Assembly (NCBI GenBank): GCA_964016885.1
Contig: OZ024740.1
Location: 234,732,001 to 234,796,000 of the forward strand
Source of the DNA: Eledone cirrhosa
Taxonomy: Eukaryota
Direction of reading: 5' to 3'
Length of the DNA stretch: 64,000 nucleotides
Shown here: positions 843-17,589 of the stretch, in pieces
How the letters are laid out: every line of letters begins with the position of its first letter
Position numbering within the stretch: position 1 is the stretch's first letter
Position numbers and translations under genes: made by a program
The notes under the pieces: generated by a model
Seen by the model: the letters and a program-made list of their open reading frames with translations, nothing else
Databases searched by the model: none
Told to the model about the DNA's origin: nothing

Positions 843-3354
843 AAAAGCGTGAAAAAATATATATGGCCACGAAAAAAAACATTAAAAATCGCGGAAGATA
901 TTTACAAATCCGCGAATATGCGGTGGTTTCCATGAACAATGCTTATAAACGTAAAAAAAATAACGTAAAATATATGCCGACAAATACGGTATATTGTTAT
1001 TTATAAGTTAGCGCTAAAAAGCGTGAAAAAATATATATTGCCACGAAAAAGCTATTAAAACATCACGGAAGATATTTACGAATCCACGGGTATGCGATGG
1101 TTTCCACGAACAATTATTAGTTAGGCTTGTAGCAGGAGTTGCCTCCCTTGTTGTGACACTCACATCACCAATAGAGTAACGCTCTCTAGACAGGAAGTAG
1201 CTGGAGTTGCTTCCCGTTGGGGTGATAGAACCCTTTTTATCACTTCCGGCAGAACCCTATAAAACGAAGAACTTTCAGCTCCCTATCTCTCATTTGCCTT
1301 TCGGACTCAGGAACGCCGCTAGCACTTTTCAGCGGTTCATAGACGAGGTCACGTGTGGTCTGGACTTCGTTTATGCTTACATAGACGATATTCTCGTCGC
1401 TAGTTCCTCTCCGGAAGAGCATATGCGCCACATGCTTCTCTTATTTCGGCGACTTCAGGATTACCGCGTTCGCGTGAATCCAGCAAAGTGTGTTTTCGGT
1501 TCCACTTCCCTAAATTTTTTAGGCCACCTCATCGACGCCGAAGGTATTAGGCCGCTCCCTCAGCGAGTTCAAGCCATACAGGAGTTACCTCCGCCTACTA
1601 CACTTCACCAGTTGCGTCACTTCTTAGGCCTAATCAATTTCTATAGGCGTTTCGTTCCTCATTGTGCTAATTTGCTATCTTCCCTTACTGACATTTTTAA
1701 AAATCGTCGTAAGAAGAATGAGGATATTTCCTTGACACAAGGACAGCTTCAAGACTTCCAGACTACCAAGACAGCACTCGTTAGTTCATCTTTGCTAGCC
1801 CACCCGGTACCAGAGGCCAAGCTTTCGCTTTGTGTTGATGCATCTGATACCGCTGTGGGAGCAGTTTTACAGCAGTCCTACGCTGAAAACCAACAACCTT
1901 TGGCATTTTTCTCGAGGAAGTTGAAACCAGCAGAAACGCGTTATAGCACGTTTGGGCGGGAATTATTAGCCATATTTCTGTCGGTGAAACATTTCTCTCA
2001 TATTCTTGAGGGGAGAAATTTTACAGTTTTTACCGACCACAAACCGTTGACCTTCGCTTTGAGGGCCAAAGCCGACAGATATTCGCCAGAGAGACAAGGC
2101 ACCTGGACTACGTTTCAGAATTTACAAACGATATCCAGCACATTGTCGGCTCGCACAACATAGCTGCAGACGCATTGTCACGTTTGCCAATTAGCTCCAT
2201 CTCGTCATCCCAGGAGATCGACTTAGGTCGTTTAGCTGCAGACGAACCTGCACTCCAATTGTTGGACACTCTTTCTGCCGAATTTGCGACTTGCATTTTC
2301 AAATATCTGCCCTTGTCCACCACCGACAGGCAGATTCTATGTGATGTATCTACGGATGCACAACGACCACTTGTTCCTGAGACTCACCGTCGAATTGTGT
2401 TCCTGGCTTTACACAACATTTCTCACCCAGGATCTGCTGCCACAGTAAAGCTCATAACAGCCAGATTCTTCTGGCCAAATATGAGGCGCGACATTGCTGC
2501 TTGGTGCCATTCCTGCATCGCTTGCCAGAAATCGAAAATCCATAGACACATCCGGACTCCACTTGGTACTTTCAGTACTCCAGATGCTCGGTTTCAACAC
2601 ATCCACATTGACATCGTTGGACCTTGGCCATTCAGCAGTGGATATTCATACATATTGACCTGTGTCGATCGTTTTTCGCGATGGCCTGAAGCCATCCCAT
2701 TACAAGACATGACTGCTGAGACTGTAGCACGTGCCCTGGTATCAGGGTGGATTACCCGCTTTGGAGTACCAACTACACTCACCACAGACCGTGGTAGACA
2801 ATTCGAGTCCCATCTCTTCTCTGAGCTCAACGGATTCGGACCACAGCCTATCATCCTGCGTCAAATGGAATGGTGGAACGATTCCACCGCCAATTAAAGG
2901 CCGCTCTTCGCGCTTATCCAGACTCTCAACGTTGGAGCGAGTACCTTCCTATTGTGTTGTTAGGAATTCGGTCATCAATAAAGGAGGACCTTGGGTTCTC
3001 CCCGGCCGAATTACTTTACGGTGCTCCTCTAGCGTTGCCTGGGCAAATGCTTGCCCCTGTTGATCTTGCTTTCCAAGATCCGCTTTCCTACGTATCCCGT
3101 CTGCGTTCTTATTTTCAGGACCTGCCGCCGATGGATACGAGGAAACAAACTGTAAAACCTGCGGTCCCGAGGGATATTGCCTCGTGGACCCATGTGTTCG
3201 TAAGGAACGATGCTGTGAGACCACCCCTCATCAATCATACTCTGGATGTAACAAGAGTAGCCTCCCTTGTCATGACAAGGGAGGCAACTCTTGCTACAGG
3301 CTCTGCGGGAAATTCCGCGAATAACCGGTACCGCGAATGCCGCTGTGTACACTG
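843..3354 (-). mobile_element. pogo/Tigger-like MITE split by a Gypsy insertion (parts 843-1127 and 3299-3354)
   Basis: Joining 1015-1127 to 3303-3354 gives the reverse complement of the element at 9849-10200 (cgaacaattatt..gaaattccgcgaataac). Ends ..gtacactg/TA. Internal duplication of 843-940 and 1016-1112. Confidence 0.7.
1128..3298 (+). mobile_element. Deleted Ty3/Gypsy retrotransposon (partial LTR, RT-RNaseH-integrase pseudogene) with inverted termini and GGCT TSD
   Basis: PFGLRNA..YIDDIL (RT), DASD..YSTFGRELLA..TDHKPL (RNase H), H-H-C-C zinc finger, [34 protein letters not shown] (integrase), broken by frameshifts. Termini TGTAGCAGGAGTTGCCTCCCTTG and CAAGGGAGGCAACTCTTGCTACA. GGCT at 1124-1127 and 3299-3302. 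Confidence 0.92.
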
Positions 3355-10534: not shown

Positions 10535-12484
10535 GTGAGTATTCTATGTAGTTTCTTGAATAATATCTTTAGCTGGCAATATGTTTCAGGACCAATCATC
10601 GGACTAAAGTGTACATACATAAGGGTGTTATGGCTCATGCATCACGCAATGTTTACCTCACATGAACACACCCGCATTTCCACCCATCTACTCTATATGT
10701 CTTTACAATTTCAAACGCTTTATTTATATATGTTCGTACATGTGTATGCATGCATATACGGCTATTACATAGTTCGATTCGCTTCTCAACGTGAATTGTT
10801 TACCTCTTACATCGTTAATGGTCTTTGTTGTTGCTTTGCCACAAATAAACTCTGATCGAACAAACCTATGGTCAAAGTAATTCCAGTCGTGGCCCTCTCT
10901 TCTTTTTTAATATCATGGAATACATTATCCAACGTGTCACGTTTTTTAAGGCAGTAGGATGTGATTTGAAGGAGATCTGTCTGTCATTTCTAGCAGGTCG
11001 AGCAATGGCAATAGAGGTCCACTTGTTAACTCTTATGAGTTTTAATAGAATCGTGAGTTTCACAACGAAACATTCTCAACCATGTATGTAATTAACGTAC
11101 ATTATTCCTCCCTACCTTTTCACTTCTTCCTTCTGGGTCTCAGTAAAACCAGTTCCACTCTTCTTCTTGAGTGTAAATGAAACGTATTCATAGATGAACG
11201 AAATTATCGTCAGCATTACGCCTATGTAAACAATAAACCATAATGGGGTGCTTCAGTTTCGAATCATAACTGGAACGGTATTACTTCATTTATGTTTTTA
11301 GTGTCTCTACTTATTTATTTCTTCCTCTACGTTCTAAGTTCAAGTCCTGCAGGAGTCGACTTTGTTATCCATCCTTCTGTGTCGTTAAATATATATACCA
11401 GTCATATACGTATGAATTTGTATTCACAGTTGTATAAACATTCTTTCAGAATGAAAATATAAACACATAATAAATACAATTAACTATTGCTAGGAATCTC
11501 ACAAATATAACACACCAAAATATACAATCAGGGCAAGAGAAAGAAAAAAAAAGGGAAACAAAAACGACCATTAATTCACCACCAAGTGCAACAATCGGCA
11601 GTACATCACAGGGGTTAAGGAAATATTTTGAGGCAAACCAATACACTCGCAGTATTACCATTGGTGATGGCGAGGCTAAGACGCTGAAACAACCAGACAC
11701 CCTCACCGTCATCACCTGACACCTCAGTAAGGCCAGTCGCCAACAATGACAAGAACTTCGCTGTTAGCGGTCCAACACCACCTAACGCCACAGGCAGACA
11801 AAATAATTGTTTGATACATTAACCCATCCTGTCTGTGAACCTAGAAAATCACAGCAAACCTTTTGTACTTTCTATTTCCTGGCTTATATCAGCTCCAATT
11901 TTCTGATTCCTTACTGTTGGTCTTACTAGACTAACCCATGCAACCAAGTATCTGGCGTTGTGCCTATGATAAAATCATTAGGGCGGTGGATTGGCAGTAT
12001 CGGTAGAGGGTCGGACGCTATGCTTTGCAGCACAGTGCCCTTTACGGTCTGAGTTCAAATCACGCCGATGTTAACTTTACCTTTCATCCTTACGGGGTCG
12101 ATAAAATAAAGCACCAGTAAAGCACTGGGATAATTGCTGGCCTTGTGCCAAAAGTAGAACCAATTATTATTAGGTGGATCGATAGAGTGTCGGGGACAAT
12201 ATACTCTACAGCATATAGTTATGGCCCTTTACGAGCTGAATTCAAATCCCACCGAGGTTAGCTTTGCCTTTCATCCATAAAATGAAGCACCAGAGCATTA
12301 CTGATGCTTTATTTTATCGCCACCATAAGGATGAAAGGCAAAGCTAACCTCGGCTGAATTTGAACTCAGAATGTAAAGGGCCGTAACTCTATGCTGCAAA
12401 GCATGGCGCCTGATGCTCTACCGATATTGCCAAATGACAGTAAAGTTGAAACAGTAGAGAATCAGAGGAATTTGAGATAGGAAG

Positions 12485-15216
12485 TGTAGTGACCCACGTT
12501 CCGCGGGCTCACATACATTCTCTGTGCGTGATTTGGCTCAACTCAGCCAATCAGCGCCAGTAGAAGAGAATGTATCTCTGCGCGCCCTGAGGGAAAAGTT
12601 CCCGCGTTGATTTGAAGAATCAGCCTTTCGCATCCTGAACTTCGAAGGAACAGCACGTACAACATGTGACGGTGAGATTCCATTTTTAGCAGCATAGTAT
12701 ATAAATGTTATTGAGACACGAGTAACATAATAATGATGTCAACAGCAGAAATTAGAGATGAAATGTATGTTTATTTTTGTTGTAGCACAAATAATGTTTG
12801 TTAACTTGTATGGTTGAAGTTACACATAAAATGATGTTACAAAAGGGAATGTGCCATTGTGCCAGGCCCAAGGAAGGCCGGCAGGCCAAAGTGCAAAATC
12901 TCACCGTTACATGTTGTACGTGCTGCTCCTTCGAAGTTCAGGATGCGAGAGGCTGATTCTTCAAATCAATGCGGGAACTTTTCCCTCAGGGCGTGCAGAG
13001 ATACATTCTCTTCTACTGGCGCTGATTGGTTGAGCTGAGCCAAATCACGCACAGAGAATGTATGTGAGCCCGCGAAACGTAGGTCACTACAATACTCCCC
13101 CTCTAGACGTAAGACGATACAGATTATTGAATCAGCAGGAAAAAATGCTGAAAGAGCAAATCAGTGAAAAAAATAATTGAACAGAAGAATGCATGCAAGA
13201 AAAAAATGAGGTGCTAAGGGCCGTGTTGTGCTGCTGTGTCAAATGACTAGCTGTTTTGTAGTTTATACGTGACCACCAAAGGTCTAACAGAAAACGGATA
13301 AAGTCTGACATGGGCGAAGTTGCTGTTCTTACATTAAATGTTAATGGTAAGTAGCTGTGGATGAAGCTATTATGGTAGTTTACCAGTGCTGGCAAGAAGA
13401 TGATGGGTAGGCGAGAAAATGTCGGCCTCCCAGATGTATTGCCGAAAGTGCTAGGCAGCCAGGAAGGAAAAAATGGCTGGTTGCTTTGAAAAGAAAAAAG
13501 CAAGTTGAATCTGTAGGTGGGTAGTAGTTGCAGTGTAAATTCCATAATTCTGGCGAATCCACAGAAGTGGTGGAAATGCTGACAGGTCCAGTTCCATTTA
13601 TTGTTTTCCCAGTGAGTCGGGTAAGGTAACAAGATGGAGGTTGTAATGGATGATGAGTGTGCAACGAGATGCGAAGCTGTTTGAATCCAGCTGCAATTAG
13701 CAGTTCTCGTGTTGCGGTGCCTGTTTGAATCCAGGTGAATTAAGCTCTATGAGTCGCTAGCATGTGTCGGCACCTCAACCAGGTGAAAAGGGATCTCGCA
13801 GAATATTACGTTTGAAGAACATATACTAAGAACAACATGTTGGTGTGTGTCAAAGAAATGTGTGTGCATATGCAGGCATGTAATACAGCAAAGAATATGT
13901 GGGTGCAGTCATATATACAATGATAAAAAAAAAAATGAATTTTCATATAATACAGTTTTTAAAAAATAAATGTCCAAACATTGCCTGTAAAAAAAAGAAA
14001 GAAATAATTGTTTCTTAACACATAGTTCGCTTTTTCTTTTCTTTTGGATTGCTCTTACTAGGAAGCTAGTAGAGTTGTTGTTGTTGTTAAAGCAAAGTCA
14101 CAGTGAATCTTCTGTAGAATCGAAGTCGAGCGTTGAAGAGTCTAGAGTCACCAATATGCCAGTCACGTCTGACGCCATAGTGGTGAGAAGACTGATGTCT
14201 TAATTTCTCGAGTCCCTGTGGTAATGAGATAGCAGGTATGGTGGTTGCGTTGGTAAAGTTACAAGCTGCCACATCGCTATTCCCTGGTGTTGGTTAGTAG
14301 TTAACCATGTGTCGCTGCTGCTGATGTATTTGGTAGTGGTGATAGCCATGTGTTGCTGTTGATGGCTGGTAGTAGAGAAGTACTTCGTGGTAGCCATTTT
14401 GAAATTTCCTCGTGGCGTAAATTTTTTTTATACATACACTGTCAATTTTAATTTCATTTCAAAAGAAATATTTTGAACTGAAAATATTCATCACGTCGGG
14501 GTCACCATTTTTAGCAGCATAGTATATTAATGTTATTGATACACGAGTAACATAATAATTGTTTCTACTTTAGGCACAAGGCCAGCAATTACACAGTACA
14601 TTACTGGTACTTTATTTTATCGACCCCGTAAGGATGAAAGGCAAAGTTAACCTCGGCGGGATTTGAACTCAAACTGTAACATAATAATGATGTCAACAGC
14701 AGAAATTAGAGATGAAATGTATGTTTATTTTTGTTGTAGCACAAATAATTGTTTCTACGTTAGGCACAAGGCCAGCAATTACCCAGTGCATTACTGGTAC
14801 TTTATTTTATCGACCCCATAAGGATGAAAGGCAAAGTCAACCTCAGCGGGATTTGAACTCAGATCGTAAAGGGACGTAACTATGCTGGAAAGCATGGCGT
14901 CCGACACTCTACCGATACTTAATGTTTGTTAACTTGTATGGTTGAAATTACACATAAAATGAGGTTACAAAAGGGAATGTACCATTGTGCCAGGCCCAAG
15001 GAAGGCCGGCAGGCCAAAGTGCAAAATCTCACCATTACATGTACGTGTTCCTCCTTCGAAGTTCAGCATGCGAGAGTCTGATTCTTCAAATCAACGCGGG
15101 AACTTTTCCCTCAGGGCATGCAGAGATACATTCTCTTCTACTGCCGCTGATTGGCTGAGCTGAGCCAAATCACGCACAGAGAATGTATGTGAGCCCGCGG
15201 AACGTAGGTCACTACA
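12485..15216 (-). mobile_element. Non-autonomous LTR retrotransposon (tRNA-Trp PBS) with an extra inverted U3 terminus
   Basis: 5' LTR 14508-15216 (two SINE inserts). PBS 14490-14507 ATCACGTCGGGGTCACCA equals the 3' 18 nt of tRNA-Trp. PPT agagggggagtat next to the 3' LTR 12683-13091. Inverted 195-bp U3 copy at 12485-12679. Flanks GAAG/AAAG. Internal region decayed. Confidence 0.88.
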
Positions 15217-17589
15217 AAAGTACAAAAAGATTTTATGCTGTATAGATTTTATGCGGGTTTAGTCAATGTAACTGAATCAGTATATGACTAGTATTTCCAA
15301 CTTTTTTATTGATATGTTCATCCCCCAAATTTGAGGCAGTGTGCCTATGTTAGAAATCATATGTAGAGCGTCGGACAATATGTTTTGCGGCATAGAGTAA
15401 CGGCCCTTTACCTTCTGAGCTCAAATCTTGCCAAAGTTAGTTTTGCCTTTCATCCTTACGTGGTCGATAAAATAAAGTACCGGTAATGCACGGGGATAAT
15501 TGCTGGCCTTGTGCCTAAAGTAGAAACAATTTTTACGGATTAGTAGAACCAGTAGAGCGTCGGACAACGTACTTAGCGGCATAGAGTTACGTCCCTTTAT
15601 GTTCTGAGTTCAAATCCTGTTCGATTCGATAAAATAAAGTACCAGTAATGCACTGGGATTTAATCGACTTTCCTCTCCCCAAAAATTGCTGGCCTTGTGC
15701 CTAAAGTAGAAACAATTATTATTACAGCAAAAGTTGGCGGACATCCTTCTAATTGATTTCTAATATTATTCAATCAACTGAGGCTTCTCCCAGAAGTTAC
15801 ATACAACCTTACCACTATTAGCACTTGCCTTTAGTTGTCAGGGTAATCCAGGATCTGTGGAATTCCTTGATTGGTTCTAAGTGTCCTCACTATTGAGGAC
15901 TTTTTTTTGTTAGTACATTTTTATTTGTCTGTTGTTATCTCTTGATTTTGTGACTTCCTTTTAACAATATTTTCATATAAAATTCCACTGTGTTATGTTC
16001 TGCCCTTTCTAACTGTCCCCATTGTCTTTGAGACCATGTGGCAAATAATTCTTAGAATCGTTAAGGGCAGTTGATTGGCAGTATTGGTAGTGCATCAAAT
16101 AACATGCTTTGCAGCATATAATTACAGCCCTTTACATTCTGAGTTCAATTCCTGCTACGGTTAGCTTTGCCTTTCATCCGTTCAGGATCAATAAAATAAA
16201 GTACCTGGGGTTGATTTTATCAACTTTCCTCTTCCCTTCAAATTACTGACCTTGTTCCAACATTAGAAACAATTATTAGAATTGTCTTGTGGTATTTGGT
16301 TACAATGCTTTACTTTCCGAGTTCAAATCCTACCAAGGTCAACTTCGCCTTTCATCCTTTCAGGGTTGATAAAATATAATATAGTACCAGCCAAATACTG
16401 GGGTTGATATAATTGGCTTTTCACAAACACAAAATTGCTGGCCTTGTGCCTAAATTAAAAAGCAATATTATTATTATTATTAAGGACAATGAACTGACAT
16501 TTTTGTTTGAGCTCTGTATCCCAAGTTCAATTCTACCATGGTCAACTTTGCTTTCACCCTTCTAGGCTTGATAAAATAAATACCAGTCACCAAATGGGGT
16601 TAATATAATCAAATATGCCCCCCACTGATTTCTGGTTTGGTGGTTGTTAGAAATTATTATTATATCTAACTGATAGATAACCAGTCAAGTGGTAACTGTC
16701 ATCCTATAATCAGTAGCATGCATGCATGGTCTTATAACTCCCGAGGGAGTTGTATGGGCGCCATATTAACATACAGCATTTCTAGGGCATTTTTTAAACC
16801 TGACGGAGTTCAACACAACAGAGAAGGATAAAGAGAGTGAGAGAATGGAAATAAGAAAGTGATATAGAGGAAGAACCAGCCCAGTACTTGACTAGTACTT
16901 TTTTTTATTCACCTCGAAAGGATGAAAGGCAAAGTTGACCATGGCAGGATTTTAACTCAGAGAGCTGAGAGTGGAAATGAATACCGATAAAGTACCTTAC
17001 CTGCCAGTATTTAGTTACATGTGTTACATGCTGAATTCAAATCCTGCACTGGGGTTGATTTAATCAACTTTCCTCTCGCCTGAAATTGTTGGCCTTGTGT
17101 CTAAATCAGAAACCATTATTCGAGGGTGGTGGATTGGCAGTATTGATAGAGCGTCGGACAACATGCTTTGCAGCATATAGTTACGTCTCTTCACATTCTG
17201 AGGTTAGCTTTGCCATGGTTAGCTTTGCCTTTCATCCTTACACAGGGTCAATAAAATAAAGTACCAGTAACACACTTGGTGTCAATAATTGACTTTCCCT
17301 TCCCCCCAAATTGGTGGCCTTGTGCCTAAATCAGAAACCATTATTATAAGAGAATGGTACACATGAAGGTATGTGGCTTAGTGGTTAGGGTTTGGGGCTC
17401 ACATCCATAAGGTCTTGAGTTTCAATACCTGGGCTGAGCAGCATGTTATGTACTTGAGACAGTTCACTCAGCTGGAAAAAATTAGTTGAAAAGACACCAA
17501 GCTGTATTGTACTTTGCCTTTCTCTTAGATAACATCAGTGGCATGGAGAAGGTAGACTGACAAGCATGGGTGGTTACTAATCTTGTGGT

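Follow-up and report, generated by a model that had tools for sequence, protein, structure and literature searches.

Copies of a CsRn1-type LTR retrotransposon with U3 at both outer borders in Eledone cirrhosa

Introduction

The general assumption, to our knowledge, is that both ends of an integrated LTR retrotransposon come from one cDNA. In vitro, integrase can pair the ends of two donor molecules (two-donor concerted integration), and Oh et al. reportedly described aberrant or uncoordinated retroviral integration in 2006. Elements of the DIRS type have fixed inverted terminal repeats, use a tyrosine recombinase and make no standard target-site duplication (TSD).

CsRn1-like elements have a primer-binding site (PBS) for tRNA-Trp, 4-bp TSDs and ends of the form TGT...AAA or TGT...ATA (Bae et al., PMC2582038), and the CsRN1 LTR model carries the 3' motif MSYYAMA (Benachenhou et al., PMC3601003, Table 3). 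Complex insertions, in which two LTR-retrotransposon molecules in direct orientation lie within one TSD, have been described by Sabot and Schulman (2007, PMC1950507). We have analysed a stretch of 64,000 nucleotides from Eledone cirrhosa (GCA_964016885.1, contig OZ024740.1, positions 234,732,001 to 234,796,000, forward strand), which we call the window. It holds one copy, now dead, of a non-autonomous LTR retrotransposon whose ends are of the CsRn1 type, with U3 at both outer borders. Its family shares the tRNA-Trp PBS, the 4-bp TSD and the termini with the CsRn1 clade of Ty3/Gypsy (PwRn1 and the AgCR elements, in the excerpts of PMC2582038) but is non-autonomous, about 2.2 kb long and without gag-pol.

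Structure of the element

The structure at 12485–15216 of the window, an LTR element with an inverted U3 arm, is confirmed as real (Table 1). A sequence-only reading of this DNA had set the unit out as LTR, PBS, internal region, polypurine tract (PPT), LTR, TGG and 195 bp of inverted U3, and both its coordinates and the inversion are borne out: 12485–12679 and 12897–13091 form an inverted pair of 195 nt with 95% complementarity. Judged from the TSD-flanked copies of the family, the LTR boundary is GCTAAA and the AA that comes next is the spacer ahead of the PBS. The TGG at 12682–12680 was correctly taken for a copy of the CCA of the host tRNA-Trp, the PBS being the complement of tRNA-Trp(CCA) genes found in the host by ARAGORN. 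We infer that the AA and TGG beyond the 3' LTR are an unprocessed cDNA end.

Table 1 Features of the element in the window (positions in the window; strand relative to the window)
Feature	Position	Strand	Basis or remark
Left target-site 4-mer CTTT	15217..15220	(-)	sequence
5' LTR, TGTAG...GCTAAA, carrying two SINE insertions	14510..15216	(-)	
SINE insertion 1 within 5' LTR	14755..14919, ends approximate	(-)	same repeat frequent in flanks
SINE insertion 2 (truncated) within 5' LTR	14560..14675, ends approximate	(-)	
2-nt spacer AA between 5' LTR and PBS	14509-14508	(-)	
PBS, 18 nt, complement of host tRNA-Trp(CCA) 3' end and CCA tail	14490..14507	(-)	ARAGORN tRNA-Trp genes
Internal region, ~1.4 kb, non-coding, non-autonomous family	13105..14489	(-)	
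PPT, then 3-nt spacer TAT	13095..13104	(-)	sequence; 113 exact PPT-LTR junctions genome-wide
3' LTR, 407 nt, ending in GCTAAA	12685..13091	(-)	
AA + TGG, spacer and first three PBS bases retained beyond 3' LTR	12680..12684	(-)	
Inverted copy of LTR positions 1-195 (U3), second outer end	12485..12679	(+)	begins at TG, without preceding PPT
Right target-site 4-mer CTTC, 3/4 match to left one	12481..12484	(-)	

Over the stretch equivalent to the arm, the 5' and 3' LTRs differ from each other at 10/192 sites, and the arm differs from the 3' LTR at 9/195 and from the 5' LTR at 13/192. By these differences, all three are of similar age. The TSD of the window element is imperfect, with three of four positions matching. 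The same holds for 9 of the 50 ordinary copies of the family whose TSD is 3/4 or better; when flank 4-mers are drawn at random, 5.8% of draws reach 3/4 or better and 0.56% are exact matches.

The internal region differs from that of copy L044 by about 5% substitutions, and neither of its two ORFs has a Pfam match. With LTRs, PBS and PPT, no gag-pol and many copies, the family is of the non-autonomous type (TRIM/LARD-like). The window copy itself is single and without evident function. It encodes no Gag; CHCC-type Gag motifs are found in other elements of the examined loci, with the last C replaced in one of them, L190 (G000:C1:242261847-242271347). This last locus is a candidate helper lineage, its LTR being 77.6% like that of the window family. 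The L190 LTR has several stacked U5/PBS-like ends; the PBS behind it is complementary to tRNA-Trp over more than 18 nt, and the locus has an ORF which, judged by eye, is gag-protease-RT-like. Arrays of matches to the 3' end of tRNA-Trp lie at G000:C4:353394904-353486294 and C4:277407662-277440858, and ARAGORN called tRNA-Trp(CCA) genes in all four loci tested. Elsewhere in the window, members of one SINE family are densely clustered on both sides of the element, in either orientation (11990–12433 and 15340–17360), and a degenerate pol remnant at 1295–3230 is ~71% like the autonomous elements nested in L135, a locus described below.

Normal ends of the family

An exact PPT–LTR pattern has 113 matches in the host genome; 100 were taken, and these lie in 97 loci, the window included. 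A script called both element ends in 60 loci, the other 37 being without an automatic call at one end. Removal of the window and of L114 and L157, in which the called end is followed by a PBS, left 57 ordinary copies. The TSD of 4 bp, the length known from the CsRn1 clade, is exact in 41 of these, 3/4 in nine and 2/4 or less in seven, two of which have an exact 5-bp duplication. A second TSD pass, biased in that the left 4-mer was known during the search, is excluded from these counts. The called 3' ends, which the TSD adjoins, are mostly ...TAAA and in some copies ...TATA, across LTR subfamilies with unlike bodies, and solo LTRs of the family behave at their ends in the same way as full copies.

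The end without CA is thus the normal terminus of the family, TGT...AAA, and no defect; it is already published and no discovery. The sequence-only reading had held that U5 was defective for want of CA and needed a second att end, and had named as contrary evidence other copies that end at U5 with an adjacent TSD. Such are the copies with exact or 3/4 TSDs counted here, and together with the published CsRn1-type termini they rule out a defective U5 end. A U3 end shorter by 2 nt was also considered and dropped, as it is unneeded for L041 and the remaining cases sit in TA repeats. Many insertions of the family lie within TA microsatellites, the 3' half of the LTR has often been hit by independent SINE insertions around positions 290–365, and truncated and nested copies are numerous.

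Copies with inverted ends

A query made from the window junction has a full-length match only at the window among the 40 that were scored of 1737 candidates. The exact junction pattern (LTR end, A(A/G), TGG, then a base other than T) has five matches genome-wide, namely the window, both LTRs of L004/L160, a point mutant of the PBS and a SINE look-alike. Because the window junction is unique, inverted ends are not the replication route of the family, and the non-canonical route giving LTR elements with terminal inverted repeats (TIRs), which had been proposed for this unit, falls away with the normal ends of the other copies. A family amplified with TIR-like ends is likewise rejected, each of the other U3–U3 loci having a joint of its own. 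Autointegration of the window copy is excluded by inference, as an internal joint with AA and TGG is not a processed att end.

What does recur is the arrangement with two outer U3 ends, with arms of variable length and with exact TSDs in two loci, but the particular joint of the window, TGG to an inverted U3, is single-copy. U3 is found at both outer ends in four of the 96 other PPT-anchored loci among the matches listed (L053, L102, L135 and L142), and L004/L160, outside the PPT-anchored sample, is one more such form. The resulting rate of ~4% is rough, since 100 of the 113 PPT–LTR matches were listed and the PPT anchor catches only copies whose first arm reaches the 3' LTR, and short arms are easily missed. 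The shortest second arm is 23 bp long and the longest is an entire element. L102 has the 23-bp arm and an exact TSD (TAGG/TAGG); L142 has two arms of ~1.4 kb that are 98% alike, with the centre missing, and again an exact TSD (CGTA/CGTA). The arm of L053 is 177 bp long, its joint lies at an 8-nt inverted microhomology inside the LTR, and its site is a TA repeat, so that the TSD is unreadable. In L004/L160 two LTRs, both ending in AA and TGG, stand tail to tail and enclose 15 nt of PBS and leader; the flanks are GGGG and GAGG, a 3/4 TSD.

Other rearranged copies were also found. In L089 and L116 the U5 end faces outward on the left, with no clear TSD, and L037, outside the sample, is a U5–U5 form without a TSD. 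In L150, L111 and L105 the ends are ordinary, a TSD is present and part of the interior is inverted, and L143, with an inverted piece within a TA repeat, was left unclassed. L128 is an analogue in direct orientation with an exact TSD, in which the 3' LTR and nine PBS bases are followed by the U5 tip of another variant. Remnants of the PBS at joints are TGG in the window, TGG twice in L160 and the nine bases in L128; TGG also stands at a direct joint in L122.

Some loci show further arrangements of LTR and PBS. L173 (G000:C1:981476-990976), a Trp-PBS element with ordinary ends, has an inverted 173-nt copy of U3 just after its PBS. In L184 (G000:C1:204379619-204389119) and L172 (G000:C2:283226500-283236400), of a related family, an LTR with its PBS stands tail to tail with an inverted second LTR and PBS, and the two PBS copies are separated by 18 nt similar to the adjoining stretch of the tRNA-Trp 3' half. 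L184 has this unit once, within ordinary outer ends with the TSD CTTC, and L172 has it more than once. The inverted joint may therefore itself have been amplified. L107, L114 and L157, considered as tandem copies, proved instead to be a subfamily with a longer, chimeric LTR, in which the window-family LTR is extended by a degenerate PBS and by a U5 tip from a different family, ending in CA. Because both LTRs carry the chimera and the elements have TSDs, an added end has become a new LTR. L126, L141, L128, L122 and L182 have part of the 5' end fused straight onto a segment further along the element; of the four checked for a TSD, L126, L141 and L128 keep it exactly and L122 at 3/4.

L135 is the only locus in which the two halves can be distinguished. 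Its first half consists of LTR-B, PBS, the body of family A, PPT and an LTR-A cut 2 nt short, and its second, inverted half of LTR-A, PBS, the gag-pol of family B (RT, RNase H and integrase in Pfam), PPT and an LTR-B with the spacer still attached. A third element, with its own TSD, is nested in the LTR-A of the inverted unit. In a neighbouring duplicate the outer flanks run on without a break around a C tract, the exact TSD being unreadable. L135 is a dimer in which elements of two different families stand tail to tail, each with the 5' LTR of the other. The halves would be reciprocal products if two co-packaged RNAs had exchanged plus-strand strong-stop DNA via the common PBS; alternatively, a tail-to-tail pair could have undergone a later inversion between its two PBS copies, which gives the same map. 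Under both histories, L135 consists of two molecules, tail to tail, whose untrimmed U5 ends meet in the middle and whose U3 ends face outward.

Origin of the U3–U3 form

The explanation that we favour, with a probability of roughly 0.55, is that integrase attached two cDNAs through their U3 ends to the same target, that their unprocessed U5 ends were end-joined and that one side of the palindrome was trimmed. On molecule 1, the right end would have retained a remnant of the PBS copy and gone unused by integrase; in the Tf1 element, a single-stranded copy of the PBS persists at the 3' end of about half of the cDNAs (PMC11042837, in excerpt). Integrase, probably supplied in trans by an autonomous relative, would have inserted the U3 ends of two separate cDNAs at one target site, and host end-joining, before or after strand transfer, would have linked the two free U5 ends tail to tail. 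The palindrome would then have lost most of molecule 2, through resection or a later asymmetric deletion. Such trimming would be expected when both halves are alike, and inverted transgene junctions mostly show asymmetric deletions (excerpts of a review, PMC8701086). The U3–U3 product would be a recurrent by-product that is not amplified further.

This explanation by two cDNAs is supported by the recurrence of U3–U3 forms, with exact TSDs in L102 and L142, by arms whose lengths point to no fixed fold-back point, and by the PBS remnants at the joints of the window, L160, L128 and L122. It is also supported by L135, which needs two molecules and in which a near-untrimmed joint survived where the meeting LTRs are unlike. 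Integration through two U3 ends in one event, as the sequence-only reading had it, is supported by the data and is the most likely course. Against the two-cDNA explanation, the U5-outward forms that it predicts (L089, L116 and L037) are without a clear TSD, the L053 joint lies at a microhomology, and the internal inversions of L150, L111 and L105 are equally explained by template switching. L135, moreover, may have been inverted later and has no exact TSD, the TSD of the window element is 3/4, and an empty site was not seen.

The alleles of the arm bear on the number of templates. At positions 98 and 184 the two LTRs of the window element have alleles in common that are absent from the arm, position 98 being a CpG and position 184 polymorphic, and at positions 14 and 96 the arm shares with both LTRs rare alleles that are each found in 4/196 other rows. 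A tree was built from 28 U3 rows, the nearest among 199 aligned; in it the arm clusters with the LTRs of the window element (91/90), with weak support for its place outside the LTR pair (92/73). Alleles and tree together lean towards a sister template for the arm; a single molecule could also have supplied it, because of the rare alleles at positions 14 and 96.

The main alternative, possible but less probable, is a strand switch during reverse transcription. The plus strand, having run to the end of the minus strand and copied the CCA of the tRNA, would jump to a plus-strand template, either its own LTR or displaced strong-stop DNA, and copy back to the U3 tip. The outcome would be a single cDNA with U3 at either end, open to normal integration. 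The window joint lies exactly after TGG, as such a switch would have it, and the grouping of the arm with the element's own LTRs, the microhomology at the L053 joint, the ordinary-ended copies with internal inversions (L150, L111, L105 and L173) and the two LTR–PBS ends tail to tail in L184 and L172 are all consistent with it. Template switching has also been proposed for complex elements with TSDs (PMC1950507). However, the window joint has no in-register microhomology, the arm lacks the two alleles common to both LTRs, and the whole-element second arms of L142 and L135 are simpler as two finished cDNAs. The published model gives direct and not inverted LTRs, the word 'inverted' occurring 0 times in that paper. 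The fold-back or template switch first put forward for the window is therefore possible, at the same lesser probability, but L135 needs two molecules. A jump to the strong-stop DNA of another molecule would merge into the two-cDNA explanation, and both routes may occur.

Rearrangement after insertion, in which a deletion fused two oppositely oriented copies that were neighbours or nested, or a template switch in replication made an inverted duplicate of U3, is unlikely. The 3/4 TSD of the window, within reach of chance at the rate given above, and the wealth of truncated and nested copies in the family would suit it, but AA and TGG are not kept by the integrated 3' LTRs of the family, and an exact TSD beyond a pair of U3 ends, as in L102 and in L142, would arise by chance in about 0.6% of cases for each locus. 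The arm, moreover, begins exactly at TG without a PPT and is of the same sub-lineage and age as the LTRs. An assembly or read fold-back artefact is very improbable, because the arm diverges from the LTRs about as much as they do from each other and is thus about as old as the insertion, and because it ends precisely at the att end beside a TSD-like 4-mer, even though no piece crosses the joint in four contig sets at 12300–12890, which are fragmented in repeats and leave the unique flank uncovered too (an opposite-strand joint in contig set X3 is an ordinary LTR).

Relation to known systems

We put forward, with rather less assurance than for the window itself, that CsRn1-type integrase may pair the ends of two cDNAs in several per cent of animal germ-line insertions. 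The products would be trimmed tail-to-tail dimers, seen as U3–U3 elements with true TSDs; in some of them the two halves would belong to families that exchanged plus-strand strong-stop DNA via a shared PBS. If so, palindromes, chimeric LTRs and new families would routinely arise from the pairing of two cDNAs, a source so far unrecognised, and the products would be missed by detectors that seek direct LTR pairs. With U3–U3 insertions with TSDs at roughly 4% of PPT-bearing copies, integration of two molecules can be tested by counting in any assembly. The U3–U3 record shows one way for LTR elements to seed palindromes and to swap LTRs between families.

CsRn1-type ends, the family type, direct complex insertions of two molecules and aberrant retroviral integration are known already. 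Inverted U3–U3 copies are not mentioned in the available parts of the CsRn1 sources PMC2582038 and PMC3601003, nor did a look-up of terms find U3–U3 copies in those of PMC5379124, PMC13570524 and PMC12789967. In the open-licence literature, covered mostly as titles and the beginnings of abstracts, no description of genomic U3–U3 LTR-retrotransposon copies with TSDs was found, which is weak evidence of absence.

The window element resembles DIRS elements in being a retroelement bounded by inverted repeats, but its family differs from them in having a PBS, a PPT, direct LTRs and 4-bp TSDs, with inversion only sporadic. In Tf1 (excerpts of PMC11042837), PBS sequence is likewise found on the right end of the cDNA and is used in repair-type joining; there, however, the PBS tail drives integrase-independent insertion and direct tandems, and 'inverted' occurs 0 times in that paper. 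Aberrant retroviral integration, as treated in the available part of PMC2857682, is similar in that an unusable cDNA end leads to a rearranged insertion that is finished by host repair. The events reported there in vivo have one integrase-made end and altered host DNA, whereas both ends of the window element look integrase-made, with a TSD of normal length. With the complex insertions of Sabot and Schulman (excerpts of PMC1950507), finally, it shares parts of two molecules in one insertion with one TSD, formed before or at integration. In theirs, all three LTRs point the same way and the outer ends are one U3 and one U5, whereas the third piece in the window is inverted and both outer ends are U3.
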